In this document: positions 8,961-28,184 of the stretch, one piece after another
Numbering within the stretch: the first letter of the stretch is position 1
Layout of the letters: every line of letters begins with the position of its first letter
From: Bdellovibrionales bacterium
GTDB lineage: Bacteria; Bdellovibrionota; Bdellovibrionia; Bdellovibrionales; UBA1609
DNA: 32,000 nt
Direction: 5' to 3'
Assembly: GCA_963692945.1 (NCBI GenBank)
Contig: OY843585.1
Coordinates: forward strand, 990,001 to 1,022,000
Notes under the pieces: model-generated
Told to the model about the DNA's origin: nothing
The model's database searches: none
The model's input: only the letters and a program-made list of their open reading frames with translations
Position numbers and translations under genes: made by a program

Positions 8961-11900
8961 TCAAAAAAATATAATCCTAGTTTTAAAATCTCTATTTTGT
9001 TTGACTTTGATTTCTTGTGTAGGAAAAGAGAAACAGATTCTTTCAGACACGGAATACGCTTCAAACGCTCCGTTTATTGTGGAGCAAATCACAAAAGCTG
9101 AAAATTCAGTTAAATCTATTAATTTTATTGAAAAAGATGGATTAAAAAATGCTTTTATTGTGAATCTTTCAACCTGTTTAAAAGATTCTTTTAAAAAGGA
9201 TAACTCTATACAAGAGACCCCTTTTGTTATTGAGTATGAAACCAATTTTGATAATGATGGAAAAACAGGTAAGAGAATAGAAAGAGTAGAAGTTACTTCT
9301 GATGTGAATGGTTGTATCCGATGGGAAGAAGAGTATAAATATAGATATGTTATTAAGCCCAAATGGATTGTCCTTACGAGAAGCATTAAAAAAGAAGAGG
9401 GGGGTTATTCTGGTCAAGTTGAAATTCCTTTGGCTGTAAATCCTTGGTTGAAAAGTAGTAATGAGGAGTTTCCAGAGGTTTTAGATTTAAGAAAAAATTA
9501 TTCTGAAAAATATTCTATCTTTAAGAAACTTCCTTATGAAAAAAAGGGATTAGAGTATTTATCCAGGAATGAAAGTTCAGAGTATCCTCAATTATGGGCT
9601 CCTGAGATAGGTTTACAGATTGAAACACAATTGCCAAAATTATCAGAGGAAAAACGATATCAAAATCCTAAGGAGTTATTAAAAAATTATCAATCCCTTT
9701 GCAATAGTGAACTTAAGGAAAATTGTTACAAACGGCACTTTAAACTCAACTTAACTATTCCTCTTCAATTGCGAACCTATGGGTTACAAAAAGATGTGGT
9801 GGATGAGATTGTCAAAGGAGGGTCTTATCATGTGAAATTACAATTGCTCGCTATTCCTGATATTAATAAGAAGTTTTATCGTATACATGAAAATATTTGT
9901 GCAGAAGATATTCATATTAGTAATTCAGCAGATAATAGTTATAGAGCAAAGAGCATCAATATATCTTGTGATATTCCTATCTCTTATTTTAGCCAACATG
10001 CCAATTATAAAATTGCTGTAGAAATTGATCCAAAAGTAGGTCTTCCTTTTACAAAATTTCAAGGGATTTATACAATCAATTTATCTCAAGAAATTAAAAG
10101 TGGATCTCTTTATACTTATAATATTGATAGCAGTTTAGAAAATGATTATACAAAGATTCCTGTAAAGACTCCAATTATACAAAATAGAAATATTAAATAC
10201 ATTTATGATGCTATTAACAACAATAGAAAAAAGATCTCTCGTGAAGGCGCATCTTTTTCTGAAGATAAACAATTATCTCGTTTAGGATTTCATTCCGTTC
10301 ATTTGGATGTGGAATTAAAAAAAATGACATTTGCTAATGTTGAAAATGATGAAAATTGTTCAAATAATGAATCCGTTGTAAAAAGAAGAGTTAATTTTAT
10401 TGGGAAAGCTTGTATTAAGGATGTGTTGACAGATTATAAAAACAAAGGAATAGCCTTTAGAGTTTTTATAGAAGATGAACAAAATGGACACAAAATAAGA
10501 GAAGTGTTTTCTGATACTACGAAAAGAACAATACCTAAAGCAGATGCAGAAGGGTGTATATCTTGGCCTGATTCTATAGAGCATAAAAACTTTGATAGGC
10601 AAGTTTATATGCCTAGAAAAGTACATTTTTTATCGGAAGAATTAAATTTATATGGAACTGTTGGTGTTGCAGTCACTCCTTGGCAAAGAGCCTTTCAGGC
10701 CTATCAAGATATTTCTCAATTGAGTCGTGATGAGATACGAACAGATACTAAAGGTGTTAAGAAGCCAAAATTGATTGTTAATCAGTTTAAAAGTGTTAAT
10801 TTATTTCCTTCTTATGTATTAGATAAATTTTTAAATATCCATTTATTTCATAGTTTGTATTTCTTATTTCAACCTTTTATATTAAGACATGATAATATTG
10901 CTTTAGGTAGAGAGGGTAGAGCAAGAGAGGTTTTACGAGATGGTTATTATATTTTACGAGTGCTTCTTTTAAGAAACCCTCAGGAGACTGGAGATTTTTC
11001 TCGGGTTGTAAAACCTGAAACTGTTGAGAATGTACGAAAGTCTATCTTGCTTAGAGAACATAATAAAGATAATCAGTATATAGAAGAGATTGCAAAGGGA
11101 GATATTAAAGGGCAATATATCACTCATATTGATACAGTGATTAAGGCAAAAGCCAATTTCGTTAATGTTTATGTTCCTCTTCATTTTACAAAAGAACAGT
11201 TTTTTTATTTGGCCTCAAGAAACTTGATATCTATTCAAGTTATTCCTGTTGATCCTGAAGGATTTAAATTTAAAGAATTGAATGAGCAAAGAGAAATTTG
11301 TGAAATTGATTTTGATAAAACAGAATGGAAACCATTTTTTGATCATGATCTTATTGTGAAACCGTCAGTAGGGGTTTTTCAAATTCAAAACTGGACAAAT
11401 TGGAATATTTTACAACCTATGAATGAAGAAAAATTCAATACGGACATGATTATAGATGCAGATGAAGAAGGTAAGAAATACAGACATTTTACATTATCAC
11501 AAGATTCTTCTAGTGTTGATATAAAGCCAGCAGAGATTGAGCCTAGTGTATTACAGCAAGGATATAATGATTGTGTAGGTGAGGAATCAGATGGGGAGAA
11601 ATTTAATATTGAATCTTGTCATCCTTCTAAAGTTACAGATAAGAGTGAAATTACTATTGAGGGATACTATCAAGAAAAAGTTGAGAAAATTATATTAGAA
11701 AAAGCAAAAACAGTGAAAAAAGATATTAGTTCGGAAGATCTTATAGATAGTTTTGCTGAAATAAATGCCTTAAAAGTTGTTAATTTAGGAGAAGAAAGTG
11801 GGAATAAATTTTTAAAAAATTTAAAATATTCTCATAATGAAACTTATCTTTTGGATGAGAATGGTACTATTAATTACAAAATTTTGGATTTTATTTCTAA

Positions 11901-14481: not shown

Positions 14482-14813
14482 AATCCCTCCTTTTTTGTAG
14501 GATTTTATTTTTGAATAATAATAGTGTTTTTATTGTAGGAAATAGTTTTTCTATTTGTCTAAAAAAAACTATGGAGCAATATGTCTTTTATGAAAAAAGC
14601 ATAGCACAGGACTTATTTTAGAGAAAACACGATAAATAGAGGATTTTAAGTTAGCCTATATGAAAAAGACTGAAATAACAGAAGAGATTTGACTTTAGGA
14701 GCAGGGAATACAGGGCATAAAATCTGTGTAAGATTTTATGTGATAGAAGTAAGGACTTTATTTGCCAAGATGTATTAAGTTAGTTTAAAAGCATATTAGT
14801 TTAAGCATTTTAT

Positions 14814-14871
14814 GCGGGTGTAGCTCAGCTGGCTAGAGCGCAACCTTCCCAAGCTTGAGTTGTGGGTTCGA
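14814..14871 (+). pseudogene. Truncated tRNA-Gly-like remnant (anticodon position CCC)
   Basis: gcgggtgtagctcagctggctagagcgcaaccttcccaagcttgagttgtgggttcga matches the first ~59 nt of the intact tRNA. There is a C-C mismatch in the anticodon stem. The 3' T-stem and acceptor strand are replaced by unrelated sequence. Confidence 0.75.
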
Positions 14872-15027
14872 TTTTTGTGTTCAAGTTGTCCCTGTGTAGC
14901 CTGCGACTTTAGGAGCAGGGAATACAGGGCATAAAATCTGTGTAAGATTTTATGTGATAGAAGTAAGGACTTTATTTGCCAAGATGTATTAAGTTAGTTT
15001 AAAAGCATATTAGTTTAATTATTTTAT

Positions 15028-15085
15028 GCGGGTGTAGCTCAGCTGGCTAGAGCGCAACCTTGCCAAGCTTGAGTTGTGGGTTCGA
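15028..15085 (+). pseudogene. Truncated tRNA-Gly-like remnant (anticodon position GCC)
   Basis: Same as the 14814 copy but with ttgccaa in the anticodon loop. The 3' T-stem and acceptor strand are missing. Confidence 0.75.
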
Positions 15086-15241
15086 TTTTTATGTTCAAGT
15101 GTTCCCTGTGTGGCCTGCGACTTTAGGAGCAGGGAATACAGGGCATAAAATCTGTGTAAGATTTTATGTGATAGAAGTAAGGACTTTATTTGCCAAGATG
15201 TATTAAGTTAGTTTAAAAGCATATTAGTTTAATTATTTTAT

Positions 15242-15299
15242 GCGGGTGTAGCTCAGCTGGCTAGAGCGCAACCTTGCCAAGCTTGAGTTGTGGGTTCGA
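15242..15299 (+). pseudogene. Truncated tRNA-Gly-like remnant (anticodon position GCC)
   Basis: Same as the 15028 copy. The 3' T-stem and acceptor strand are missing. Confidence 0.75.
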
Positions 15300-15453
15300 T
15301 TTTTGCGTTAAAGTTCCCTGTGTTGGCTGCGACTTTAGGAGCAGGGAATACAGGGCATAAAATCTGTGTAAGATTTTATGTGATAGAAGTAAGGACTTTA
15401 TTTGCCAAGATGTATTAAGTTAGTTTAAAAGCATATTAGTTTAATTATTTTAT

Positions 15454-15530
15454 GCGGGTGTAGCTCAGCTGGCTAGAGCGCAACCTTGCCAAGGTTGAGG
15501 TCGTGGGTTCGAATCCCATCACCCGCTCCA
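15454..15530 (+). tRNA. tRNA-Gly (anticodon GCC), CCA encoded
   Basis: Hand-folded cloverleaf: acceptor GCGGGTG/CACCCGC, D arm GCTC-AGCTGGCTA-GAGC, anticodon arm CAACC-TTGCCAA-GGTTG, T arm GTGGG-TTCGAAT-CCCAT, discriminator T, CCA. Confidence 0.95.
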
Positions 15531-15624: not shown

Positions 15625-16797
15625 CTATGTTGTTTTTAATAGAAACTCTGAACTCAAATGCTCTTCTTGAATCTGATATTCATTAGGTAAGTAAACATAG
15701 CTTTGTATATCCATCTTATCAAGGTGTTGGCACATTAAAGGACCTACATCTTTCCAGTGTAATTTTCCTAAGCCACATCCTAACGCTGGAAGAGCTATGG
15801 ATTCAATTTTTTTATCTTTATAATTATCTACTAGCCACTGTAATCCTTTTTTAATTCCGTCAATAGGAGAGGATTCTTTCCAGTGATTTTTTGTAGGAAA
15901 TAAAAGAAACCAACGGTGGCCATTTTCTGTAATAGTTGCATTTGAATTCTCCATAAGTGTCATTTCAAAATTTTCATTTCTTTTATAAAGAACAGGTGTT
16001 CCCATTTTTAATGTTTTATTTCTGCACAAATCTTGATAATGAACATAGACATCAGGAAATTGATATTTTGATCTCGAAGCTAAGCCTTTCCCCATAACAC
16101 CAACCGTATTAACACTAATGGTAAATGTTTGCATATCAGAAAAAAACATATCTCCTTTTACCAAAGTAATGTTTTTTGAAATTTTCTTTTGATAATCAGG
16201 AAGAAAAAACATTCTGGGGGAGGGGATAACATTTATAGGACCTATAAACTCTTTTTTAATTTCTTTTGATATTTTATCATTGGCAGTATAAATCGCTACA
16301 ATATATTCTTTTGGTATTTTTTCTGGCACTAAAAGTTCAGCCATAATTTTTCGTTTAGAATCGTCTGAATTATTCCAGTAATCTTTTTGAAATTGATCTT
16401 TGGTTATTTTTTGTAATCCATTATCTATATCTTCAAAAAATTCTGTGTCTGAAGATGCAGCATTTCCATCTGTAATGCCAGCATTTTCTATTTCAATGAT
16501 TTTAGGATCAACTTGTATAACAATAATATTTTCTTCTTTGTGTTTTCGAATCACAGAATATAACATAGGGTTTCTGACTTCAAAGTAAAGATTAGCATAA
16601 TTCCATAAAGATCGTTCTCTAAATTTTTTATTTTTTCTTATTTTAATGATGTCTTTGTTGTGAATGGATTCAAATTTGATTTTTTTAAAAAAATTGAATA
16701 TACTAGCTTTTTGAGATCGTGCAAATATACCATTTTCTAAAATAGATTTCAGATTTTTTCTGTGTGTAATATAATAAAATTGTTTTGGCCTTTTCAT
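15625..16797 (-). CDS. Fused DarT-like ADP-ribosyltransferase (DUF4433) and DarG/TARG1-like macrodomain, single 390-aa polypeptide
   Basis: The N-terminal half has DarT hallmarks from memory: FYYITHRKNLKSIL (YHITH..NL), LWNYANLYFEVRNPMLYSV (DYVPFYF.PRSPMLY), DYWNN...KRKIMAELLV (catalytic-Glu motif QAEFLV). The C-terminal half is a macrodomain: VNTVGVMGKGLA, FPTKNHWKESS (the TK..HW motif of DarG/TARG1), ALPALGCGLG. Confidence 0.85.
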   Translation of the reverse strand: MKRPKQFYYITHRKNLKSILENGIFARSQKASIFNFFKKIKFESIHNKDIIKIRKNKKFRERSLWNYANLYFEVRNPMLYSVIRKHKEENIIVIQVDPKIIEIENAGITDGNAASSDTEFFEDIDNGLQKITKDQFQKDYWNNSDDSKRKIMAELLVPEKIPKEYIVAIYTANDKISKEIKKEFIGPINVIPSPRMFFLPDYQKKISKNITLVKGDMFFSDMQTFTISVNTVGVMGKGLASRSKYQFPDVYVHYQDLCRNKTLKMGTPVLYKRNENFEMTLMENSNATITENGHRWFLLFPTKNHWKESSPIDGIKKGLQWLVDNYKDKKIESIALPALGCGLGKLHWKDVGPLMCQHLDKMDIQSYVYLPNEYQIQEEHLSSEFLLKTT

Positions 16798-17135: not shown

Positions 17136-17780
17136 ATGAAATTTATGTATAGTTTAAAAATTTTTATTTTATCTGTTTTTATATTGCCTCATTTTTTTGT
17201 TTATGGAAACAGTGATGAATCTAAAGAAATTGAAACATTTAATGTAGTAAAGGAACGGATTTATCAAACACTAAAGTATGGTGATGTAAAAGAATTTGAG
17301 AAAGTGATAAGTGAGAACTCAGACTTGCTTTCTAAAGATCATATAAAACTTTTGTTACAAGAGTTTGTAGAGAGTGACGAGTTTTTAAAATTAACTATTG
17401 ATGACAGAGCAAATTCTCCTACAGGTAGGGGTCTCTATACTACAACAGCAAATGCTATAGCAGCTTTTTATGGTATAGGAGCTTTCGCAGTTGTTAGCAC
17501 TGTATTTAGTCCTTATATTGATTTTGAAGGTTTTTTAGGAATGTCAGGATATTTAGCGGATCTTTCAGAAGTAGGTGTTCTAGTTATGCTAACCTTGGTA
17601 CCAATATACAACAATTCATCACTACATACATTCCTCAAAAGAGCATTTATAGATAGAAATGTTTTACCAAAGCTATCATCAGATATAGAAAGGATATCAC
17701 ATATAAATCAGTTTAAAAAAGTAAAAGATTTTTACAAAGACAAAAGACAAAAATGTAAAGCCGTTTTTTCTTCGTCTTAA
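17136..17780 (+). CDS. Hypothetical exported/membrane protein (214 aa)
   Basis: ATG preceded by AAGGAGAGAG. Signal peptide MKFMYSLKIFILSVFILPHFFVYG|NS. Two central hydrophobic helices (AIAAFYGIGAFAVVSTVF, VGVLVMLTLVPIY). C-terminus is ...KRQKCKAVFSSS. Confidence 0.7.
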   Translation: MKFMYSLKIFILSVFILPHFFVYGNSDESKEIETFNVVKERIYQTLKYGDVKEFEKVISENSDLLSKDHIKLLLQEFVESDEFLKLTIDDRANSPTGRGLYTTTANAIAAFYGIGAFAVVSTVFSPYIDFEGFLGMSGYLADLSEVGVLVMLTLVPIYNNSSLHTFLKRAFIDRNVLPKLSSDIERISHINQFKKVKDFYKDKRQKCKAVFSSS

Positions 17781-18189: not shown

Positions 18190-19032
18190 TTATCTTTTAC
18201 TTACAATTTCATCTCTCTCTTCTACAACTGGTACTCCAGCACTTAAACCTAAACGATTGGCTCCATTTACAAGCATATCTGATGCTGTTTGAAGATCTTT
18301 CATTCCTCCGCTGGCTTTGATTTCCATATGGTCAGAAATACTGGCTCTCATGAGTCGTACATTTCTTACAGTAGCTACTCCTTCAGAAAAACCAGTTGAG
18401 GTTTTTACAAAATGAGCTCCAGCTGTTTCTACGATTTGTGAAGCAGTAACAATTTCTTCTTCAGTCAATAATCCTGTCTCTAATATAACCTTAACTGGAA
18501 GTGGAGTTGCTTCTACGACGGCACGAATGTCTTTTTCCGTGTATTCAAAATCTCTATCTTTAATAGAACCTACATTGATAACCATATCTAATTCGTCTGC
18601 TCCTTTTTTATAAGCATCTTTTGCTTCAGCCACTTTACTAGCTGTAGTAGGAGAACCTGTTGGGAATCCTATCACTGTAGCAATGAGAGGTTTATGTTTG
18701 TTTTCTGACACTTTGTCTAGCATGTTTTTTACAAGAGGAACGCGACAAGGGCTTACACAAACTGCTTTAAATTTGTGGAGTAAAGCTCCATCAACAAGAT
18801 TTTCAACATCTTGTCTAGTAGATTGAGGTTTAAGGACAGTTTGATCCATAGTATCTTCAATATTGTTTATGACTGTATCTTTTTTTATATTTGCTTGTTT
18901 TGGCTCTGTTTTATCTACAGCTCTTATAATTTTTTGAGCATCGGCTTCAAAGGTTTTTTTACAAAATTTACTAGCTTGAACGGCAGGGGTTAAGACAATA
19001 AGGCCTCCCCATAAAAATAAAGTTGTTTTCAT
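18190..19032 (-). CDS. deoC: Deoxyribose-phosphate aldolase with an N-terminal export leader
   Basis: DeoC core: DQTVLKPQSTRQDVENL, AVCVSP, TVIGFPTGS, ELDMVINVG, VKVILETGLL, FVKTSTGF, IKASGG. The ATG is preceded by AAGGAGA. About 60 extra N-terminal residues: MKTTLFLWGGLIVLTPAVQA|SKFCKKTFEAD... Confidence 0.9.
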   Translation of the reverse strand: MKTTLFLWGGLIVLTPAVQASKFCKKTFEADAQKIIRAVDKTEPKQANIKKDTVINNIEDTMDQTVLKPQSTRQDVENLVDGALLHKFKAVCVSPCRVPLVKNMLDKVSENKHKPLIATVIGFPTGSPTTASKVAEAKDAYKKGADELDMVINVGSIKDRDFEYTEKDIRAVVEATPLPVKVILETGLLTEEEIVTASQIVETAGAHFVKTSTGFSEGVATVRNVRLMRASISDHMEIKASGGMKDLQTASDMLVNGANRLGLSAGVPVVEERDEIVSKR

Positions 19033-19296
19033 AATTTTCTCCTTATATTTATTTTTTATGTGAAGGTTATACTCTTTAGTTTTTAAAAAATCAAGAAAAA
19101 AATAAGTTTTTGAGGAAAGTTCTAGAAAATGATTAAACTATAGTGTTTAGGCTATTTTTTCTCTGAATTGAGTCATAATAAGAAAGACTAATAACTTCTT
19201 TATCCCAAGTTTTTGCATTATCTTTTTTTGTTTTCTTTTATATAAAATTTAATTTTTTAAAGTATTTCTTTATTTAAGCCATACAATTAGTTTAAT

Positions 19297-20322
19297 TTAG
19301 TGAGTATTAAATTCTTTATTACAGAAACATAAAAAACCTTGAAGCATTTTTTCACTATGTATTTTAACATGCTTTAACATGTCTTCATCTTTTATTTCTG
19401 AACCTTTTAAGCCACTTCCAGGGTTAGAGATCATAGAAAAACCTGTTACTTCGGCTCCAGCATGTTTTAAAGCAATGGCTTCCCAAACTGTGGACATACC
19501 TACAACATCTAATCCCCATTGAGCAAAAAGTTTTATTTCTGCTGGAGTTTCTAAATTAGGACCAGGAACGCAAATATAAGTTCCTTCTTGGACATGAACT
19601 CCTGCCATTTGAAGTTCATTTATAATTTTATTTCGTGTGTTCTCACTGTAAATTTTTTCCATATGTGGGAATCGATCTCCTAAAGGTTCTCCATTATGAT
19701 CAGTGGGGTTGGGTCCAGTTAGAGGACTTTTTCCTGTAAAATTAACATGATCTTTTAAAGCAATGATAGTTCCTATAGAAAGGTCTGATCTTAATCCTCC
19801 TCCAATATTTGTTAAAGTGAATTTTTTTGTCCCAGCTAATAAAGGTTCCATCACATTGCGAACAACTTTTTGAGGACTTATATCTTCATACCCATGAAGT
19901 CGTCCACATTGAAAACAAATAGATTTTTCTGTTTCACGGTGAACAAAGTATCGGTAGAGTCCTTGATGAGTGTTTGCTGTTGGCATTGTTAAGCCCGGCA
20001 CATCAGAAAAAGAAATAGAAAATCTTTCTTCCCAAATATGAGAGAGTTTTTTCCCTAAACTATCTAAAGCTTGGCTGATACCTGAACCTAAAACAAAATG
20101 TCTTTCTGGAGATTGAATTTTATGTTTTTTATATTGTTCTTTTAAAAAATCTGCACCTGTTTGTGATGTAAAGGAATTTTTACATGTATTTGGAATTCTA
20201 TCTATAGGTTTTGCATTTACAAATGTTGAAAAAGAAATAAAACTAAGAATGCAATATAAATAAAAAAAATTTATCTTAAGCCTTTTTATTCTTTTGAAAA
20301 ATTCTATTATTGGTTTTATCAT
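19297..20322 (-). CDS. punA: Purine nucleoside phosphorylase (trimeric PunA/PNP family) with an N-terminal export leader
   Basis: Family motifs: VLGSGIS, GRLHGYED, TNIGGGL, GPNLETPAE, VGMSTVWE. About 50 extra N-terminal residues with a hydrophobic core, then ...STFVNA|KPIDRIPNTCKNSFTSQ. Confidence 0.88.
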   Translation of the reverse strand: MIKPIIEFFKRIKRLKINFFYLYCILSFISFSTFVNAKPIDRIPNTCKNSFTSQTGADFLKEQYKKHKIQSPERHFVLGSGISQALDSLGKKLSHIWEERFSISFSDVPGLTMPTANTHQGLYRYFVHRETEKSICFQCGRLHGYEDISPQKVVRNVMEPLLAGTKKFTLTNIGGGLRSDLSIGTIIALKDHVNFTGKSPLTGPNPTDHNGEPLGDRFPHMEKIYSENTRNKIINELQMAGVHVQEGTYICVPGPNLETPAEIKLFAQWGLDVVGMSTVWEAIALKHAGAEVTGFSMISNPGSGLKGSEIKDEDMLKHVKIHSEKMLQGFLCFCNKEFNTH

Positions 20323-20650
20323 ATCATCTCTAGATTTTATAATTTCTTACAAGGTTCTTTATGAGGAAAAAGATTTTCATATATTTGACTTTTAGAAGTT
20401 CCAAGCGATAAGAGTGGAAATAGGAATATACAGATTAAAAAAGTCTTAAAATTAAAGAGCGACATTACGAAGAATTTGACCAAAAAATAGGCAAAAAATC
20501 AAGAATAAATTGCAAAATAGGGAGTTTTTTTCAGAAATATTCAAAAAATTGATTATTTTTTAAGAAGAATCACATGAGCTTAATTGTAAAAAAAGAAAAC
20601 TATTTTTTTTTGAGGGTTTTTTTAAAATCCATTTTTTCGTTTTGTGAAAT

Positions 20651-22066
20651 CTATAAAACAGTTTCAATAAGTTTAGGTATTTCTTTAGGGGAGGATTTAG
20701 AAAAACCAATAGCTTGTATGAAAAATTCTTCAGCTTCTTTAAGAGAGGATTTTTTACTATAGTAAAAAATAGCAAGAGGATGTCCTTTCTTTACATAATC
20801 TCCTAAACGGACATTCATTTCTATACCCACATTATGATTTATAACATCTTCTTTTTGTAATCGTCCGGCACCTAAGAGAACAGAGGCCATACCTATATTT
20901 GTAGTGTTCATGCTACCGATATATCCATCTTGAGGAGCAAGAATTTGACGTTTGGTTGAAGAGTTTTTTGGCAACTTGAGTTGACAAGTCCCTTGAGCTT
21001 TACACATTTTTTCAAATAATTCAAAAGCCAATCCACTTTCTAAACTGCTTTCAGCCATAGCGTAACCATGTCTAAAAGTTTTAACTTTATTTGTTATGTG
21101 AAGCATACGAGCTGTTAACTGTAAACTGAGTTCTTTTGTGCTGTTGTAATAATCTGCATGTTCAGCAGGAATTTCATTTTTTAAGATAGTTAAAACTTCT
21201 TGGACTTCTAAAGAATTTCCAATAAATCGTCCAAGAGGTTGATCCATATTAGTAATAAGACCAAGAAATTTAACATCATTGTATTCAGCAATATGTTTTA
21301 ATTCCTCTGCAAGTTGAATAGCATCTTGTTTGGTTTTCATAAAACCACCAGAACCAAATTTCACATCCATTACAAGAGCATCTAATCCTTCAGAAAGTTT
21401 TTTACTCATAATACTTGCTGCAATAAGAGGTTGAGAACTTACTGTTGCTGTTACATCTCTTAAAGCATAAATTTTCTTATCTGCAGGGGCTATGTTTTCA
21501 GTTTGCCCAGCTATAAAAACTCCAATTTCTTTTATTTGTTTTTTCATTTCTTTTTCAGAAAGATTGATATTAAATCCTGGCAAGCTTTCTAACTTATCTA
21601 AAGTTCCACCTGTGTGACCTAACCCTCTTCCAGAAATCATAGGAACTGCAACGCCACAGGATGCACAAAGTGGTGCTAAAATTAAAGAGACTTTATCTCC
21701 AACACCTCCTGTACTGTGTTTATCAACAATGGGTATATTAAGGTCTTTAAAATTTAAAACTTTTCCAGATTGAGTCATGGCTTTTGTGAGAAAACCTGTT
21801 TCTTCTCTAGAAAGTCCATTCAAACGAACAGACATAGCCCAAGCAGACATTTGGTAGTCAGGAATTTTTCCTTTAGTGAAAGCTTGAACAATATAAGAAA
21901 TCTCTTCTGCACTATGAGATTTTCCTAAGGCTTTATTGTCAATCAATTGTACCATATCAAAGGTTTTTTTACTGGCAAAAGTATCTGAACAAGGACTCGC
22001 AAAAGAAACAGAGCTTAAAAAAGAGATTAAAGGAATCCATCCAATATATTTTAATAACAACTTCAC
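20651..22066 (-). CDS. deoA: Thymidine / pyrimidine-nucleoside phosphorylase with an N-terminal export leader
   Basis: Family motifs: IPDYQMSAWAM, DKHSTGGVGDKVSLILAPL, SGRGLGHTGGTLDKLE. The track start at 22132 is a TTG with no RBS. GTG at 22066 follows AAGGAG-TGAA and gives MKLLLKYIGWIPLISFLSSVSFA|SPCSDTFASK. Confidence 0.85.
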   Translation of the reverse strand: MKLLLKYIGWIPLISFLSSVSFASPCSDTFASKKTFDMVQLIDNKALGKSHSAEEISYIVQAFTKGKIPDYQMSAWAMSVRLNGLSREETGFLTKAMTQSGKVLNFKDLNIPIVDKHSTGGVGDKVSLILAPLCASCGVAVPMISGRGLGHTGGTLDKLESLPGFNINLSEKEMKKQIKEIGVFIAGQTENIAPADKKIYALRDVTATVSSQPLIAASIMSKKLSEGLDALVMDVKFGSGGFMKTKQDAIQLAEELKHIAEYNDVKFLGLITNMDQPLGRFIGNSLEVQEVLTILKNEIPAEHADYYNSTKELSLQLTARMLHITNKVKTFRHGYAMAESSLESGLAFELFEKMCKAQGTCQLKLPKNSSTKRQILAPQDGYIGSMNTTNIGMASVLLGAGRLQKEDVINHNVGIEMNVRLGDYVKKGHPLAIFYYSKKSSLKEAEEFFIQAIGFSKSSPKEIPKLIETVL

Positions 22067-22109
22067 TTCACTCCTTGAATAACCATAAAAAAACGTAACC
22101 AATGTGTAC

Positions 22110-22200
22110 AATAAAAAAACTTTAAAAATCAATAAAAAACTCTAAAAATCAATAAAAAACTCTAAAAATTAATAAAAAACTCTAAAAATCAATAAAAAAC
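22110..22200. repeat. 20-bp tandem repeat, about 4.5 copies, in the divergent deoA / mutase promoter region
   Basis: The unit aataaaaaactctaaaaatc is repeated head to tail (22110-22130 is a 21-nt variant, then 22131, 22151 and 22171 start full units, and 22191 starts a partial one). Confidence 0.85.
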
Positions 22201-22258
22201 ATTTACTTTTAAGTTGTTTTTTTGTAATGATTTATTTTTATTGTAGGGAAATTTAGTA

Positions 22259-23758
22259 ATGTTTAGTAAAAAATCTTTATTTGTATTAGGGCTTATTTGT
22301 TTTTCTTATTTGTCTTATTCAAATTCCTGTTTAGATACATTTAAAAATAAAGACGAAAAAAAAGTTGTTAATCTTGATATTTTTAAAGGTAATGATATTA
22401 GAGGGGTTTTTTCAAAAGATTTTGATTCTGATTTTGCTAAAGATCTAGGGAAATCTATTGTATCTTTTTCTTCAAATGAATTATCTATTTCTAATCCAAA
22501 AATTTTAATAGGTTATGATGCTAGATTGAGTAGTCCTGAATTAACAAAAGCTCTTTCAGAGACTTTACTTAAACAAGGTGCTACTGTATCTGTGGTTGGA
22601 CTTATTCCTACTCCTTTAGCTTATTTTTTACTTCATCATTATGACTATACGGCTACAGTGATTGTAACTGCTAGCCATAACCCTGTTGAATACAATGGAT
22701 TTAAAATTATGTTTAATAATAAATATGACAGATTTAATGTTATATCAGATATAAAGGATATTTTTAAAAATAAAGACTTTTTACCAAATGAAGACTCTGG
22801 CGAAATGGTGAAATTAGATCCTTATACTCCTTATATTAATTCTTTAAAAAAGGAATTTCCTAATTTAAAGCCTATTCCTTTTGTGGTGGATGCAGGAAAT
22901 GGGTCTGCAGGGCTTTTGGCAAAAAAAGCATTTAAAGCTTTAGGTCTTAACCCTCACTATCTTTTTACAGAGCCTGATGGGACTTTTCCTAATCATCATC
23001 CTGATCCTACAAAGGAATCAAATTTAAAAGACCTTAAACAGAGAGTAGCAGAAACTGAAAGTGTTTTTGGAGTAGGGTTTGATGGAGATGGAGATAGATT
23101 AGGTATTGTAACTTCAAAAAATAAATTTATTCAATCGGATGAATTTGCTTATATGTTTTTACCAACTCTTTTGGGCGATCCTAAAAATTCTAAAACCCTC
23201 ATAGCGGATGTTAAAGTTTCAAACTGGTATTTTGAAAAAGCTCAAGAGATGAATGCTAATGTCATTACATCTAGAACAGGGTATAGTTTTTTAAGGGAAA
23301 ATATGAGTAAAAATAAGGCTTCATTGGCTATGGAGTTGAGTGGACATATTATGTTTAATGATCGTCCTAATAGGGGATTTGACGATGCTCTTTATAATAT
23401 TTTACGATTTATAGAGTTAATAGGAGATAAAAAAGGATCTATAGAAAGTCTTTTGCCTAAAGTAAACACTGTAAAAACTAATGAAATAAGAATCAAATTA
23501 AATTTAAAAGATATTAAAAAATCTTTAGATTATTTAAAAACTCATTTAGATACAACCAAAGAATCTTATCTAGATATAGATGGAATACGAGTTACAAGAG
23601 GCGATTCTTGGTTTTTAGTTCGTCATTCTCAAACAGAAAATGTATTAAATCTTCGTTTTGAATCTTCATCTGAAAAAAAGGTTTTAAATTTGATTGAAGA
23701 GATTTCTAAAATTATGAACATCAAAATTCCTAAAGAAGAAATAGACATCTATCATTAA
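22259..23758 (+). CDS. Alpha-D-phosphohexomutase family protein (PMM/PGM type; candidate phosphopentomutase) with an N-terminal export leader
   Basis: Active-site loop TASHNPVEYNGFK, metal loop GFDGDGDR, and IFKGNDIRG near the domain start. About 35 extra N-terminal residues: MFSKKSLFVLGLICFSYLSYS|NSCLDTFKNK. Confidence 0.88.
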   Translation: MFSKKSLFVLGLICFSYLSYSNSCLDTFKNKDEKKVVNLDIFKGNDIRGVFSKDFDSDFAKDLGKSIVSFSSNELSISNPKILIGYDARLSSPELTKALSETLLKQGATVSVVGLIPTPLAYFLLHHYDYTATVIVTASHNPVEYNGFKIMFNNKYDRFNVISDIKDIFKNKDFLPNEDSGEMVKLDPYTPYINSLKKEFPNLKPIPFVVDAGNGSAGLLAKKAFKALGLNPHYLFTEPDGTFPNHHPDPTKESNLKDLKQRVAETESVFGVGFDGDGDRLGIVTSKNKFIQSDEFAYMFLPTLLGDPKNSKTLIADVKVSNWYFEKAQEMNANVITSRTGYSFLRENMSKNKASLAMELSGHIMFNDRPNRGFDDALYNILRFIELIGDKKGSIESLLPKVNTVKTNEIRIKLNLKDIKKSLDYLKTHLDTTKESYLDIDGIRVTRGDSWFLVRHSQTENVLNLRFESSSEKKVLNLIEEISKIMNIKIPKEEIDIYH

Positions 23759-23845: not shown

Positions 23846-23861
23846 ATATTCCTAGAGAAAA

Positions 23862-24276
23862 ACTACGGTTTTTCGCATGGGTAAGTTCTTCAAATCTCGT
23901 TAAAATAAGAGTTACTAACAGATTATGTTTGAACTAGAGAAAAACTACGGTTTTTCGCATGGGTAAGTTCTTCAAATCTCGTGAAAATAAAAGATTTAAA
24001 CATAGAGAAAACCTACTGGTTTTCGCAAACGGTTTTTCGTATGGATGATCTATTCAAATCTCGTTAAAATAAGAGTTACTAACAGGTTATGTTTGAACTA
24101 GAGTTTTATTATTTGAACTAGAGAAAAATTTCTGTTTTTCGCAAACGGTTTTTCGTATGGATGATCTATTCAAATCTCGTTAAAATAAGAGTTACTAACA
24201 GATTATGTTTGAACTAGAGTTTTATTATTTGAACTAGAGAAAAACTTCTGTTTTTCGCAACTCTGGTTTTTGTAGA
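23862..24276. repeat. Degenerate tandem repeat array (units of 72, 68, 116 and 116 nt plus a partial), each with a GAAAAAC-N4-GTTTTTC mini-hairpin
   Basis: Units begin ctagagaaaaac at 23862, 23934, 24002 (variant), 24118 and 24234. They share the core ...ggtttttcg..ttcaaatctcgttaaaataagagttactaacag.ttatgtttgaa. Confidence 0.8.
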
Positions 24277-26823
24277 TTACTTTTTCTTAAGGAATTTATT
24301 GTTGTACTGATCAATGATTTCTGCATCATCTGGTGCTGCTTCATTATCCGTTAGTTGGGCTGTCGGAGCAGGTTGTAGAGATAGAGGGAAAAATCCATTT
24401 TCCGGATCTTGTTTCCATGCTGATCCTGCTATGGCTTCATAGAGAATAAGTTGAGCATTTCCAGTATCTGAGTCAACCAATGCAATCCCTGATTGCCAGC
24501 TACTATAACCTCCTTCAGTATAAGCAACGGATTTATAAGTAGAGGTTCCCACATTTACAGTTCCTCCTAAGATACTTGGTTGATGAGAATCTCCTATTAC
24601 ACTTTGTTCAACCGCTTTTGCATGGGAAGGCATTCCTCCCTTAGCTCCGTTTGCTCCTTTATGTCCATGGAAGTGTAAGTACACTGGATTGTGTTGAGGA
24701 CCTACAATAAAAGGTTCACCAGTTTGTAGAACTTTTACTCGGTTTGGATCTACAATATAAAGATTACTTTTCATTTTTTTATGCTGAAGTTTAGGTTCTA
24801 AACCATCATGAAGTGTTTTTCTATGGTGGTTAAACATATATTCAAAAACATTTACATTTAAATGAGATCTAGCAAAAAGCAATTCAATAAGAAATTCTCT
24901 GTTAGGCATATCTTTTATAGCATCGGGATTGTCTAAAAGATTTTCTATCCAATAATGATGATTACTATCAACAAGTACAATATTTAAATCAGGAAATTTT
25001 TGTAAAAATCCATTCATAGTTTGTATAAGACCTTCTATCTCATCTTTTATATTCAATTCTCCTCTTTTGTATTTCTCTAATTTTGAATTTAATTTATGAG
25101 ATTCATGATGATTATGAGAACTCCCGTCAAGAGCATCATGAAGAACTAAAGTTTTAATATTGTGGGTTCTCATAATGTCTTCATGCACTTTTAAAAGAAG
25201 TTGATTGGCATTATAATCATGGAGATCTCCAGTAACCATAGTGTCTATGTTTCTTTTTATTATTTTGTCATTAGTGTATAAATGATTTAAATCTATAAAA
25301 CCAGGTATCTGATTTTGTTCAACAGAAGGGTCTTGTTTTGAATTGCCAAGATATTTTATAGGACGAACATAGAAAAACCCTGGAAGTCCCCCTTGATTTG
25401 GTCCAGATTTTTTATCAGCTAATTCAAGGATTAAGGCTCCCATAGCATGACGATTTTTTGCTAATTCACTCACTCTCAAAGAGGCTGGATTTTTAGAAGG
25501 GTAGAGGGGAGTTGTAATAGATCCAGGAGCCCATAAACCATGAGTGATATCTTTATTATCTGCTGTAGCGACAGTTTGATAGCGTTGCTGAGGACTACCT
25601 ATAATCTGAATTTGACCTCTTTTTCCCTGACTATAAGTATCTAGAGAAGCAAAAGGATTTGCATTTTTAGGCATGACAGGAAGAGCCCAGATTCTTAAAT
25701 AATCACTAAAGTTTATAGTGTGAGTCACAATACGTACTTTATCTGGCATACTCAAAAGATAAGGATCAATTCCATCTGTTTGTCCATTAACAGGAAGAAG
25801 TATAATAGGGACTTTTTTTCGTGTTGCATATTTTAACAAGCTTTCAAAAAAGTCTCTGTTTGTTGGAATTCCTGCTGTTACAGTAGAAACAATAGCTCCT
25901 TTGGCTTGCAAAACCATATCTGCTGTTTGTTGATCCGATTCTAGACTAAATTGATTGGTGTCAATGTAGTTGAGAAAAGCAGAAGGAGTTAATTTTTTTG
26001 CTAGCATTTCTACTTCCTCCATTCCATTTTCAAAAAGAACAGGAATATGTGCTTCTGATTTTTTATTAAGAGAAACCTTATTTCCTAACATAACACTCAG
26101 GTGAAGTTCTTTTTTTAAATATTTTGGTAAAATGTTGTTGTCTTCATCATGTTTTTCTACATACACCTGATAAAGTCTTTTGATGTCTGGGGTTTTGTTT
26201 TTCCATTTTATGTCATCACTTTTTATAGAAGCTATAAAAGCTTTTGCTATACTTTTTTTTAATTTTGTAATGTATGTTGGATTTTCTTCTTTGACTTGAT
26301 TCCAAAATATCATTGGAATAGAATCACCAATCAGTTCTTCTAATTTTTGTTTCGGCATTTTTAAAAATAAAGATATATCTCTAATACGAGGTATAACTAA
26401 AGTTTTACTAACCATAGTTAATATAGCTAGTTCAGCTTTTTTTAAAATATTTTGTGAAGTAAGGGTTTTATCAGCAGTCAAAAGGGCTGCTGAACGTAAA
26501 GCGGCTTGCTGTAGGTTTATTTTTGCGGTTGCATTTTCTTTTGATGCAGGAGGTGTTGTATCTTTTGCATCTTTTGCGGTTGCATTTTCTTTTGATGCAG
26601 GAGGTGTTTTATCTTTTGCATCTTTTGCATTTGCATCTTCTTTTGATGCAGGAGGTGTTTTATCTTTTGCATCTTTTGCGGTTGCATCTTCTTTTGATGT
26701 AGGAGGTGTTTTATCTTTTGCATCTTTTGCATCTTCTTTACTAAAAGTGTCTTTACATTTCTTATTTTCTGCATAGGAGGGAAAAGCCAATAATATAAGA
26801 ATTAAAACTAAAGTTTCTTTCAT
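24277..26823 (-). CDS. Secreted 848-aa protein with a 17-aa tandem-repeat linker and a C-terminal calcineurin-like metallophosphoesterase motif set
   Basis: Signal peptide MKETLVLILILLAFPSYA|ENKKCKDTF. About 4 copies of KDAKDKTPPASKEDA.A. The C-terminal third carries an ordered motif series: VTGDLHD, LHDALDG, VDSNHHYW, HFHGHKG, IGDSHQP (compare DxH, GDxxD, GNHE, GH, GHxH). The start ATG overlaps the upstream stop (ATGA). Confidence 0.8.
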   Translation of the reverse strand: MKETLVLILILLAFPSYAENKKCKDTFSKEDAKDAKDKTPPTSKEDATAKDAKDKTPPASKEDANAKDAKDKTPPASKENATAKDAKDTTPPASKENATAKINLQQAALRSAALLTADKTLTSQNILKKAELAILTMVSKTLVIPRIRDISLFLKMPKQKLEELIGDSIPMIFWNQVKEENPTYITKLKKSIAKAFIASIKSDDIKWKNKTPDIKRLYQVYVEKHDEDNNILPKYLKKELHLSVMLGNKVSLNKKSEAHIPVLFENGMEEVEMLAKKLTPSAFLNYIDTNQFSLESDQQTADMVLQAKGAIVSTVTAGIPTNRDFFESLLKYATRKKVPIILLPVNGQTDGIDPYLLSMPDKVRIVTHTINFSDYLRIWALPVMPKNANPFASLDTYSQGKRGQIQIIGSPQQRYQTVATADNKDITHGLWAPGSITTPLYPSKNPASLRVSELAKNRHAMGALILELADKKSGPNQGGLPGFFYVRPIKYLGNSKQDPSVEQNQIPGFIDLNHLYTNDKIIKRNIDTMVTGDLHDYNANQLLLKVHEDIMRTHNIKTLVLHDALDGSSHNHHESHKLNSKLEKYKRGELNIKDEIEGLIQTMNGFLQKFPDLNIVLVDSNHHYWIENLLDNPDAIKDMPNREFLIELLFARSHLNVNVFEYMFNHHRKTLHDGLEPKLQHKKMKSNLYIVDPNRVKVLQTGEPFIVGPQHNPVYLHFHGHKGANGAKGGMPSHAKAVEQSVIGDSHQPSILGGTVNVGTSTYKSVAYTEGGYSSWQSGIALVDSDTGNAQLILYEAIAGSAWKQDPENGFFPLSLQPAPTAQLTDNEAAPDDAEIIDQYNNKFLKKK
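26521..26733 (-). repeat. Coding 51-nt tandem repeat (about 4 copies)
   Basis: ttttgcggttgcat(c/t)ttcttttgatgcaggaggtgtt(t/g)tatcttttgcatc is repeated. It encodes the K/D/A/P/T-rich linker at residues 31-101. Confidence 0.9.
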
Positions 26824-28184
26824 GATGCTTTGCCTGTGAAAGTATTCTTACAATTTTTTTCATTTGTTTCATTTTCATCAGCTGGTTTAAAATTTTCAGT
26901 ATTAACTAACATTTTTCCAGTTTTATTATTATCTGTTTCTTTATTGTTAGCTTGAGAAGGGTTGTTTGATTCCTTTGTTGGTTTTGTGCTTTTAGGTGCT
27001 TCCTTATCAGCCTTTTTTTTAGCAATTTTTTTATTATTGTTTTTATATATTGAAGAGATACTCCTAGTTTGACTGGTTTGTAAATATTTTATATTGAAAC
27101 GATTGATGTTTTTTGGATGCATGTTTAATTCTTCTATTAATTCTACATCTGTTATAGGTCTAAAAAAACCATTATTAAAAACAAGAATACGATAACCATC
27201 AAAAGTTTTATCATCTTCTATATACTTATCTCGTCCAGCATGAATAAATACAAATTTTATTTTGTGCCTATATAAATTTTCTTGAGAGGATTTTTGTACT
27301 TTTTTAAAAAGTGCATCGGCGTATTCAGGATGGTCTTCAGCTACAATCATAAGATGTTTGTTCTCTCTTTCTCCTTGGATAGATTTTTGTTTTTCAACAT
27401 GAATAAAGCCTTTTCCTTTATTTCTGATAGGTTTAAGAGAAAGCTGTTTAACTTCTATATCAATAGCTCCTACTTTTTTATCAAGCAAGGTTCGTCCATA
27501 TGTACGACTATCTACTGAACTTAAAGCATGAAGTCTGAATTGGTGAGAAATTTGGGTTAAATGGTCGTTTTTTAAAAGAGTCTCAAAGAACTGATCAAAA
27601 TTAGCATGGTTTTGTGCTCTTGCTGTATGTATGGCTAAGTCTCCTTTTAACGGATTTTTCATGAGCCAAGATGCGATATCATAGGTTAAACCATAAAAGT
27701 TCTTATTAGTTTTTTGCTTTTTTTGCCTGTCAAAAGCTAATAATAAATCTTCAACGAGATAATTTTTATTTTCATGAAATCTAAATCTGTCATAAGAGGT
27801 GGATTCATTTATTGTATAATAACCAGGGATAATGGTTAGAGGGCGATCTTTAAAAAGAAAATCCTCTTTTAGTTTAACTTCTTCCAAAGTTTTAATTTTT
27901 CCCGCTAAGCCTAAAAGATGTTCCATTTGATGAAATTCTTCAATAGTGATTGGGAAGGAGGAAGGTATTTTTTCATGTATTTCTGTGTATTGAATTGCAC
28001 TGTGTAAAGATTCTATTTTTTCTAGTATGTAGTAAGGTTGCCAAGGACTGTTAATCTCAGACATAAGCGTTCCATCAAAATCAGTAACAAGAACAGTATG
28101 ACCAGCGTACCCATCTCCTTTTTTACCAGCAATAGCTAATGGAATAAGGGTTACAATAAATAAAAAAATAGTTGTTCTAAACAT
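26820..28184 (-). CDS. Secreted 454-aa protein with an N-terminal HAD-type DxDxT motif (putative phosphatase/nucleotidase) and a low-complexity C-terminal tail
   Basis: Signal peptide MFRTTIFLFIVTLIPLAIA|GKK. VLVTDFDGTLM is a textbook HAD motif I. Later motifs are only tentatively placed (IHTAR, VAEDHPEYAD). The K/N/E-rich tail ends ...NEKNCKNTFTGKAS. Confidence 0.75.
   Translation of the reverse strand: MFRTTIFLFIVTLIPLAIAGKKGDGYAGHTVLVTDFDGTLMSEINSPWQPYYILEKIESLHSAIQYTEIHEKIPSSFPITIEEFHQMEHLLGLAGKIKTLEEVKLKEDFLFKDRPLTIIPGYYTINESTSYDRFRFHENKNYLVEDLLLAFDRQKKQKTNKNFYGLTYDIASWLMKNPLKGDLAIHTARAQNHANFDQFFETLLKNDHLTQISHQFRLHALSSVDSRTYGRTLLDKKVGAIDIEVKQLSLKPIRNKGKGFIHVEKQKSIQGERENKHLMIVAEDHPEYADALFKKVQKSSQENLYRHKIKFVFIHAGRDKYIEDDKTFDGYRILVFNNGFFRPITDVELIEELNMHPKNINRFNIKYLQTSQTRSISSIYKNNNKKIAKKKADKEAPKSTKPTKESNNPSQANNKETDNNKTGKMLVNTENFKPADENETNEKNCKNTFTGKAS

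Follow-up and report, generated by a model that had tools for sequence, protein, structure and literature searches.

The 32,000-nucleotide stretch of Bdellovibrionales DNA studied here (contig OY843585.1, positions 990,001 to 1,022,000), hereafter referred to as the window and with a GC content of ~30%, carries genes for four enzymes of (deoxy)nucleoside catabolism, namely deoxyribose-phosphate aldolase (DeoC), a trimeric-type purine nucleoside phosphorylase (PNP), a thymidine/pyrimidine-nucleoside phosphorylase (TP) and a mutase of the alpha-D-phosphohexomutase (PGM/PMM) family. Each of the four begins with an extension that contains basic residues, a hydrophobic segment free of charges (18-19 residues, more in PNP) and a site with small residues at positions -3 and -1; a motif of the form CxxxF, designated here as the tag, is located 0-9 residues past that site (Table 1). 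According to comparison with solved structures, the catalytic cores begin at about residue 57 in DeoC, at 47-66 in PNP and at 35-39 in the mutase. The sub-coordinates of leaders and tags were verified by translation.

Table 1. Position, leader and tag of the features described in the window (aa, amino acids; bp, base pairs; positions counted from the first letter of the window)
Feature	Position	Strand	Length	Leader	Tag	Other elements
Leader-bearing ankyrin-repeat protein	2338..3240	-		present	SKCREIF (stop), C-terminal (2338-2355)	
214-aa protein	17136..17780	+	214 aa	present	tag-like C-terminus KCKAVFSSS (stop) (17754-17780)	internal hydrophobic segments
deoC, deoxyribose-phosphate aldolase precursor	18190..19032	-	280 aa	aa 1-20 (18973-19032)	CKKTF, aa 24-28 (18949-18963)	charged linker to ~aa 56 (18865-18948); core from ~aa 57
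Trimeric-type PNP precursor	19297..20322	-	341 aa	aa 1-37 (20212-20322)	CKNSF, aa 47-51 (20170-20184)	tag immediately ahead of first core helix
TP precursor	20651..22066	-	471 aa counted from GTG	aa 1-23 (21998-22066)	CSDTF, aa 26-30 (21977-21991)	
20-bp tandem repeat (CAATAAAAAACTCTAAAAAT, 4.6 copies)	22109..22200					divergent TP/mutase intergenic region
PGM/PMM family mutase precursor, candidate phosphopentomutase	22259..23758	+	499 aa	aa 1-21/23 (22259-22327)	CLDTF, aa 24-28 (22328-22342)	
848-aa protein, same leader and tag	24277..26823	-	848 aa	aa 1-18 (26770-26823)	CKDTF (26743-26757)	~80-aa repeat linker KDAKDKTPP(A/T)SKE... (26509-26742), then His-rich conserved C-terminal half
454-aa HAD-like protein (DFDGT motif)	26820..28184	-	454 aa	28125-28184	CKNTFTGKAS (stop), C-terminal (26820-26852), preceded by N	

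A protein search with TP recovered a tight group of 13 relatives sharing 61-77% identity, and flanking DNA was examined for seven relatives (L001, L002 and L083-L087). Beyond this group, matches reached 52% identity at most and corresponded to ordinary enzymes without a leader (430-447 aa), several of which bore a Bdellovibrionales or Oligoflexia label; a scan of the species-representative genome collection with TP returned only distant TPs (≤49% identity). The closest labelled relative is a protein from an 'Oligoflexia bacterium' metagenome-assembled genome (MAG; P0013, MDE0092066.1), and on this one related label the lineage is provisionally placed within Oligoflexia. The related contigs measure 1.19-1.86 Mb.

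By family membership, the four enzymes are ordinary. DeoC passed the equivalog cut-off of the NCBIfam model TIGR00126 (226.1 bits against 117.3, aa 60-269) and matched the solved structure 3r12_A (E=2e-49, aa 49-275); FVKTSTGF, VKVILETG, IKASGG and ELDMVIN are present and invariant across five orthologues, and the catalytic strings LDMVIN, KVILETG, FVKTSTGF and IKASGG were read in the translation, the roles of the Schiff-base lysine and its partner residues being those established for E. coli DERA (KTSTG, KVIxET, KxxGG, DMV). TP exceeded the cut-offs of both TIGR02644 (509.5 against 409.05) and NF004490 (500.5 against 269), remained below that of the thymidine-specific equivalog TIGR02643 (421 against 570.7), and has a complete three-domain architecture (PF02885, PF00591, PF07831) with the motifs DKHSTGGVGD, SGRGLGHTGGTLDKLE, IYALRDVTATV and SIMSKK. 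PNP scored 104.2 bits with the Pfam model PF01048 (cut-off 25.1) and slightly under the cut-offs of the NCBIfam models NF006054 (208 against 218) and TIGR01697 (177.5 against 197.1); it matched solved trimeric PNPs (1vmk_A; human or bovine PNP) at E ~1e-31 to 1e-35, and GSG, CGRLHGYE, TNIGGG, PNLETPAE, VGMST and ISNP were read in its sequence. The mutase showed PF02878, PF02879, PF02880 and PF00408, all above cut-off, and its motifs TASHNP, DGDGDR, ELSGH and RHSQTE are kept in three orthologues. Taking the catalytic roles of these DeoC, TP, PNP and mutase motifs to be those established for the families, all four enzymes are catalytically intact as judged by motif content.

The assignment of the mutase within the pathway is less direct. 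No NCBIfam equivalog cut-off was reached (the best, PgmG, at 309.6 against 600), and among solved structures PMM/PGM enzymes were closest (E ~1e-72), with the 'Phosphopentomutase' 9ix8_A at 1e-21. The gene is syntenic with the deo genes in the window, in L083 and in L001, and bears leader and tag every time; this synteny, seen in three genomes, and the shared tag are the grounds on which we regard it as a candidate phosphopentomutase. Human PGM2 and archaeal enzymes are phosphopentomutases of the phosphohexomutase family, and these, together with 9ix8_A, provide a precedent for pentose-phosphate mutase activity in this fold. The window enzyme belongs to the same superfamily, and the phosphoserine, Mg and phosphate-binding loops are all present; it is, however, much nearer to bacterial PMM/PGM than to 9ix8_A. 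A first-pass annotation of this DNA had noted that an alkaline-phosphatase-type (DeoB) phosphopentomutase is missing, and we likewise identified none within the window, where 8 open reading frames (ORFs) were searched against Pfam and NCBIfam and the remainder were assessed by their translations and the Pfam labels of their L083 counterparts.

Translation starts and leaders

A Shine-Dalgarno sequence (SD), TAAGGAGA, lies 6 nt upstream of the leader ATG of DeoC, and AAGGAG precedes the GTG at 22066 of TP, which is also the start of the deposited 471-aa protein P0001, identical in sequence. From these signals, TP most likely starts at this GTG and not at the TTG at 22132 chosen by the ORF finder, so that its extension would comprise ~37 aa. 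In the relatives, strong SDs likewise stand before the leader codons, such as AAGGGGAG in the L001 TP copy and AAAGGAGG in L087 DeoC. Conversely, inspection of the upstream sequence revealed no ribosome-binding site ahead of the internal methionines of DeoC or TP. For the other two enzymes, the first-pass annotation had found no alternative start before the core, and this holds: codons 2-90 of PNP contain no in-frame ATG, GTG or TTG, and the sole candidate in the mutase is the TTG at codon 18, within the hydrophobic core. Since SDs are found at the leader starts and not at the internal methionines, and since PNP and the mutase have no usable downstream start, the sequence indicates that the leaders of all four enzymes are translated.

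The internal methionines themselves had been described as lying exactly where the canonical enzymes begin, as if a leader had been grafted onto a complete gene. In DeoC this proved mistaken, as Met62 lies inside the conserved hDhTxLKP motif, 5-10 residues past the usual N-terminus, and its position is occupied by F or I in 4/4 orthologues. In TP the methionine does lie near the canonical start, not exactly at it; 11 of 13 orthologues keep it where the core begins, two have Ile instead (P0005 and P0014), and canonical TPs have a hydrophobic residue (F, L or I) at the aligned position.

Two alternatives bear on these starts. The first, that the extensions are an annotation artefact, with translation beginning at the internal methionines or the upstream stretches being non-coding and the enzymes ordinary cytoplasmic proteins, could draw on the proximity of an internal methionine to the canonical N-terminus in 11/13 TPs and in the window DeoC, and on one gene caller having picked such a methionine for the TP copy P0011. 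We find it scarcely credible, given the distribution of SDs, the replacement of the methionine in P0005, P0014 and all DeoC orthologues, the impossibility of an internal start in PNP and the mutase, and the conservation of leader properties, Cys and Phe at 61-77% identity while their surroundings diverge. P0011 itself (435 aa; L001 8533-9936, in tandem with P0007), the one apparently leaderless second copy encountered, was rejected as such and proved to be a gene-calling artefact: the ORF extends upstream to MLKFFIFLSIFYSLQTFGAGSCKKLF, with an in-frame leader and tag and the strong SD AAGGGGAG. Its public gene call begins at the internal methionine and conceals both elements; the TP and DeoC gene calls in L002 also look 5'-truncated. 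A second DeoC/LacD-family gene in L089/L090, considered as a DeoC paralogue, was rejected as a leaderless class I fructose-bisphosphate aldolase.

The second alternative, not exclusive of export, is that TP, and in the window also DeoC, is produced in two forms, a long one that is exported and a short one, started at the internal methionine, that stays in the cytoplasm. Such an arrangement would supply cytoplasmic salvage activity without a second gene and would explain the methionine retained at the core boundary in 11/13 TPs. We regard it as improbable, as no SD accompanies the methionine, a structural role at a position that is hydrophobic in canonical TPs suffices to account for it, two orthologues have lost it, the option is closed to PNP and the mutase, and free cysteines have been purged throughout the protein, as described below.

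Leaders and tags are conserved beyond the window. All 13 close TP orthologues keep the leader and CxxxF although the leader sequences have diverged, and both elements are found in every syntenic orthologue of DeoC (4), PNP (2) and the mutase (2); the upstream regions of the orthologues thus turned out to contain conserved coding leaders instead of non-coding DNA. Cytidine deaminase with leader and tag was found as one copy in L084 and as six identical tandem copies in L087. In the latter, the six 168-aa tagged deaminases stand beside two tandem tagged TP genes (4593-8264 and 10001-13179), an apparent amplification of exported nucleoside enzymes in one relative. The tag-to-core linker ranges from ~5 to ~90 aa (the longest in L083 DeoC) while the tag persists, a variation in length that would be typical of a tether.

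Leader properties were assessed with a home-made feature script, which is heuristic, on ~30 tagged proteins and on leaderless controls. With few exceptions, the tagged proteins combined a basic N-terminus with 13-28 uncharged residues in a row and 8-residue hydropathy maxima mostly of 2-4, with small residues at -3/-1 (VQA, SFA, SYS, VNA, SYA, etc.) mostly 0-8 residues before the Cys; the window PNP was scored with a 7-residue stretch because the script halted at CILSF within its hydrophobic core. In contrast, leaderless TP homologues had uncharged stretches of ≤9 residues and hydropathy maxima of ~1.5, and none of 18 housekeeping enzymes of the lineage (GltX, AspS, LeuS, EF-G, PurH, PyrG, Alr, etc.) showed a leader-like N-terminus. 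In this heuristic scoring, the leaders thus carry the basic n-region, h-region and small -3/-1 residues of Sec substrates of signal peptidase I. No RR pair, as in the Tat twin-arginine motif, is present in any of the four leaders, and the lipobox pattern [LVI][ASTVI][GAS]C is not found across the tagged proteins: the residue before the tag Cys is S (9), K (7), P (6), D (4) or another, such as F, N or Q, and A, S, N and M predominate at -3. A few variants (ANS/C, ANA/C) would pass a lax lipobox rule, whereas most fail. The first-pass annotation had described the layout as n-region, hydrophobic core, AxA-like site, Cys tag and a K/D/E-rich linker; these elements were recovered, but the linker is long only in DeoC and the neighbouring 848-aa protein, and of few residues in PNP, TP and the mutase. 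On these features, the leaders are predicted to be cleavable Sec signals of the signal peptidase I type.

The same segments might instead remain uncleaved and anchor the enzymes in the membrane with their catalytic domains on the cytoplasmic face, as a tethered deo metabolon beside a nucleoside transporter. With this arrangement the cofactor problems discussed below would vanish; moreover, a Lys-rich stretch after the hydrophobic segment of several proteins could favour a C-in orientation, and the K/R-rich tagged tail of the 214-aa protein might be cytoplasmic. Nevertheless, hydrophobic cores mostly of 13-20 residues, conserved -3/-1 sites and basic N-termini are the architecture of a signal peptide and not of a transmembrane helix, C-terminal tags occur on proteins that have N-terminal leaders of their own, and neither the purge of free cysteines nor the gain of cysteine pairs is expected of cytoplasmic domains, all of which makes an uncleaved anchor very improbable.

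The tag and the cysteine content of the enzymes

Among 135 distinct ORFs from the window and the relatives' loci, CxxxF right after an N-terminal hydrophobic segment was observed 33 times against 0.84 expected (Poisson P ~1e-40). A further 8 occurrences, where 0.79 would be expected, lay 14 residues or less from the C-terminus, in all eight cases in proteins with hydrophobic N-termini. The consensus is [NS]-x-C-[KE]-[KD]-[ST]-F, and the N- and C-terminal versions display the same preferences (C-[KE]-[KD]-[ST]-F-[KS]); those at the C-terminus end 0-9 residues past CxxxF, without a hydrophobic segment, and are represented in the window by the 454-aa, ankyrin and 214-aa proteins. Tagged proteins in the relatives include ankyrin and Sel1 repeat proteins (L084, L087), orphan paralogue families, a DEAD/SNF2-type helicase (DEAD/ResIII/Helicase_C; L086 18657-21452) and a GpsA-type NAD(P)H-dependent glycerol-3-phosphate dehydrogenase (L001 19307-20380), which is apparently intact and has the tag Cys as its sole cysteine. 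In L002 (13694-19173), five paralogous orphan genes share a near-identical leader and tag (MKKGFLKSKIFLLVFT.GFLPEALAQ.QCK..F) while their bodies diverge, and look like an expanding family of tagged exported proteins.

The tag resembles known cysteine signals in part. In the bacterial lipoprotein signal (Lgt/Lsp, L-[AS]-[GA]-C) a leader likewise precedes an invariant Cys close to the mature N-terminus, and a flexible tether often comes after it; the tag, however, has no lipobox, is preceded by an AxA-type site 0-8 residues upstream, and can also be used at C-termini. A canonical lipobox (LTLISC) does occur in the window, on a 1694-aa protein. MYXO-CTERM-type signals are also short terminal motifs with one invariant Cys borne by many exported proteins of one lineage, for which lipid attachment and surface display after type II secretion have been proposed, but they consist of a motif, a transmembrane helix and a C-terminal Arg cluster, whereas the tag has neither helix nor Arg cluster and is more often at the mature N-terminus. 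Accordingly, the tripartite pattern of MYXO-CTERM and its relatives was not found, as no transmembrane helix or Arg cluster follows the tag. Comparison of the tag peptides with NCBIfam, allowing E values up to 10, retrieved nothing relevant, and a literature search found no report of this tag. Judged by sequence, the tag is lineage-specific and previously undescribed, fits no known lipobox, Tat or tripartite signal, and is probably a shared address or anchor and possibly a new kind of sorting signal. It could serve for a disulfide to a partner, for lipid attachment, as a secretion signal or as a site of host-mediated acylation; speculative as this chemistry is, the lone thiol would most likely serve for one specific covalent attachment, by disulfide bonding with a partner or through a lipid.

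The remaining cysteines of the enzymes were compared between the tagged clade and leaderless outgroups, with 13 against 85 sequences for TP, 5 against 15 for DeoC and 3 against 44 for PNP. Three TP cysteines found in 81, 83 and 84 of the 85 outgroup sequences are absent from all 13 clade members, which have instead acquired the pairs C134-x2-C137 and C355-x5-C361, with C134 and C361 in 13/13 clade and 0/85 outgroup sequences. In DeoC, none of the 5 clade sequences has any of six cysteines that are frequent in the outgroup, and C96 has been gained beside the universal C92. In PNP, the common outgroup Cys is replaced by Met, and C136-x2-C139, C332-x-C334 and C251 have been gained (each 0/44 or 0/20 in the outgroup). 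Furthermore, the tag Cys is the sole cysteine of the mature mutase and of the 848-aa, 454-aa, 214-aa and tagged ankyrin proteins of the window, and it is also alone in the L089 and L090 orthologues; cytoplasmic proteins of the lineage mostly contain 0.6-2.6% Cys. Three unrelated folds thus show cysteine remodelling in one direction, from which we infer the signature of an oxidising compartment. The disappearance of free thiols, the acquisition of close pairs and the reservation of one thiol in the tag together suggest extracytoplasmic folding under oxidising conditions, with a single thiol kept for a specific bond.

Compartment of the pathway

The first-pass annotation had proposed that the deo enzymes carry functional export leaders, and the SDs, the conserved leader and tag, the non-conserved internal methionines and the cysteine remodelling all speak in its favour. 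From the sequence evidence, we consider it probable, with some reservation, that the enzymes are exported, fold in an oxidising compartment and work together outside the cytoplasm, the periplasm or cell surface being slightly favoured as their destination; it is the cysteine pairs that point to such an oxidising place. In this model, precursors with a Sec leader would be translocated from the cytoplasm and then fold in the oxidising compartment, where the exported phosphorylases would convert nucleoside and phosphate to base and (deoxy)ribose-1-phosphate, the mutase would convert (deoxy)ribose-1-phosphate to (deoxy)ribose-5-phosphate, and DeoC would yield glyceraldehyde-3-phosphate and acetaldehyde. 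The phosphorolysis is reversible, and would be driven forward because the mutase and DeoC remove pentose-1-phosphate in the same compartment. In the relatives, cytidine deaminase would feed the exported route. The cell would then import the bases together with the small products, whether phosphorylated or aldehydes.

Several observations weigh against this model. The mutase requires a sugar-bisphosphate activator, which is not expected in the periplasm, and the tagged GpsA and helicase of the relatives make little sense there. No system for product uptake and no tag-processing enzyme was identified. The close cysteine pairs could bind metal rather than form disulfides, and for DeoC and PNP the cysteine comparison relied on phylogenetically distant outgroups. 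Finally, the search for leaderless copies reached the window and the relatives' loci, so that copies elsewhere in the genome are possible.

The tagged GpsA and helicase, together with the bisphosphate requirement of the mutase, point to a cytosol-like destination in a host or prey. The periplasm might then be a place of transit, the tag a signal for a second secretion step or for modification by the host, and the enzymes would act in the host or prey, turning host nucleosides into bases and triose phosphate, and, via the tagged GpsA, providing glycerol-3-phosphate, with the bacterium importing the products. Host cytosol would meet the activator requirement; the tag is also borne by ankyrin and Sel1 proteins, orphan paralogues, the helicase and GpsA, which need ATP, NADH or eukaryote-type targets; its occurrence at either terminus beside disordered K-rich linkers is like that of a linear recognition motif; and the genomes look small (from the contig sizes given above) and are AT-rich (~30% GC). 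On the other hand, no link between the tag and any secretion machinery was found, a genome of 56% GC likewise has the HAD-like/848-like gene pair with its lone terminal Cys, and close cysteine pairs better fit an oxidising place than a reducing host cytosol, even though periplasmic transit could still select against free thiols. We regard such onward delivery as unlikely, but worth serious consideration. Regarding lifestyle, the label of the one Oligoflexia MAG, the 1.19-1.86 Mb contigs and the leader-bearing ankyrin and Sel1 proteins are consistent with a predatory or intracellular habit, as circumstantial evidence.

In enzyme families and logic, the set corresponds to the cytoplasmic deo pathway of E. 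coli (deoCABD) and Mycoplasma hominis, that is, TP and PNP phosphorolysis, a mutase, and DeoC yielding glyceraldehyde-3-phosphate and acetaldehyde. In M. hominis, thymidine utilisation by DeoA, DeoB, DeoC and DeoD is an energy source in an organism with a small genome (PMC8895549). By analogy, the organism studied here, whose genome also looks small, could live partly on nucleosides. The known pathway, however, is cytoplasmic and leaderless, whereas the window enzymes all have a Sec-type leader and Cys tag, and the cysteines of TP, DeoC and PNP have been remodelled; its mutase is the alkaline-phosphatase-type DeoB and not a PGM/PMM enzyme; and the window genes do not form one operon, as three are spaced separately on one strand and one is divergent.

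Extracytoplasmic nucleotide scavenging is carried out by UshA, CpdB and AphA in enterobacteria and by surface nucleotidases and nucleases in Gram-positives and mollicutes. These scavengers likewise have Sec leaders and handle nucleic-acid breakdown products outside the cytoplasm before uptake, but they are hydrolases that stop at nucleosides or phosphate, whereas the window set adds phosphorylases, a phosphosugar mutase and an aldolase. To our knowledge, exported phosphorylases, phosphosugar mutase and aldolase are part of no described system, and a full-text literature search found no report of exported DeoC, TP, PNP or Cdd. The novelty therefore lies in the relocation, as the enzymes themselves are ordinary members of their families.

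Neighbouring genes and implications

Downstream of the mutase, the genes for the 848-aa and 454-aa proteins form a pair in which the stop of the latter overlaps the start of the former (ATGA). The 848-aa protein gave no match to Pfam, NCBIfam or PDB sequences, its AlphaFold model is poor (mean predicted confidence, pLDDT, 59), and a Foldseek search with it retrieved no match under E=0.01; five of five homologues consist of a leader followed by a Cys motif, and the His-rich motifs are conserved. A reading of these motifs as a metallophosphoesterase could not be confirmed, with no fold or family match. The 454-aa protein belongs to an orphan family of 67 representatives; its model (pLDDT 86.5) has a disordered tail at residues 404-442 ahead of the tag and a weak Foldseek similarity to HAD phosphatases (probability ≤0.44). 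In 30 aligned homologues, down to 20% identity, the leader is kept and the lone C-terminal Cys in Cxxx[LF] is nearly invariant, which makes the terminal-Cys device older than the AT-rich lineage. The two proteins might supply the pathway with nucleotides, an attractive but speculative idea.

The pair is conserved in L083, L089 and L090 and in the distant 56% GC contig L088. In the latter, of metagenomic origin (10001-13776), stop and start also overlap; the first protein ends in ..NCTAILAGNF.. and the second has a leader followed by ..KDCASVVAG. From these paired terminal cysteines, the HAD-like and 848-like proteins might be linked to each other. It is possible, and we put it forward tentatively, that the lone-Cys motif is a new sorting or anchoring signal, able to act at either the mature N-terminus or the C-terminus, with older roots in this HAD-like/848 module of distant genomes, and that in the reduced-genome lineage the motif has spread across a large set of exported proteins and relocated whole pathways to the outside. 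The relocated enzymes of nucleoside catabolism, cytidine deaminase among them, and the GpsA of some members would then be 'metabolic effectors' at the surface or in a host or prey, held by a covalent bond of the tag thiol.

Other features of the window are less directly related. The tag-like end of the 214-aa protein could be a chance match, and its topology is ambiguous; its use as evidence for a periplasmic tag was dropped, because the K/R-rich tail leaves the orientation ambiguous. An ankyrin-repeat DNA field with 99-bp periodicity extends over 1925-7391, with intact leader-bearing ORFs at 2338-3240, 4348-4977 and 5208-6035; within it, 6147-7391 comprises 12.5 repeat units without any ORF of at least 100 aa and is probably a decayed ankyrin gene. 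The 1694-aa lipoprotein (8866-13950, plus strand) has the lipobox LTLISC and 33 cysteines, many of them regularly spaced in aa 1212-1306, and is conserved in L083 (14389-19368) beside the same gene set; that it is a docking partner for the lone-Cys tags is pure speculation.

A 390-aa ORF (15625-16797, minus strand) combines the ssDNA ADP-ribosyltransferase domain of DarT (PF14487, E=2e-40) with a macro domain resembling DarG (NF048014, E=1e-43), a toxin-antitoxin pair in a single polypeptide, and adjoins a tRNA-Gly gene (15454-15530). Beside it, a 214-bp unit repeated 3.8 times with 97% identity (14691-15512) reaches the 5' part of this tRNA-Gly(GCC), and may be a scar left by successive integrations at the tRNA. 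Between the mutase and the 848-aa gene, a 116-bp unit is repeated in 2.3 copies (23850-24270), preceded upstream by related partial copies, and the 20-bp repeat between TP and the mutase may be regulatory. The Rfam scan of the window detected two tRNAs only, and promoter and terminator scans gave matches no more frequent than in shuffled sequences.

Gene callers that start at internal methionines, as for P0011, hide the phenomenon in databases, and similar cases may exist. The cysteine-remodelling signature can be reused for spotting relocated cytoplasmic enzymes in other genomes, and the tag, as a sequence-defined and easily testable candidate sorting or anchoring mechanism, allows the tagged exported proteome of this uncultured lineage to be enumerated. 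Phosphorolysis of nucleosides, phosphosugar isomerisation and aldol cleavage are textbook reactions of the cytoplasm. If true, a whole exported set would alter the view of metabolic compartmentation in Gram-negative cells, and would change that of how host- or prey-dependent bacteria harvest carbon, phosphate-ester energy and bases from nucleic acids.

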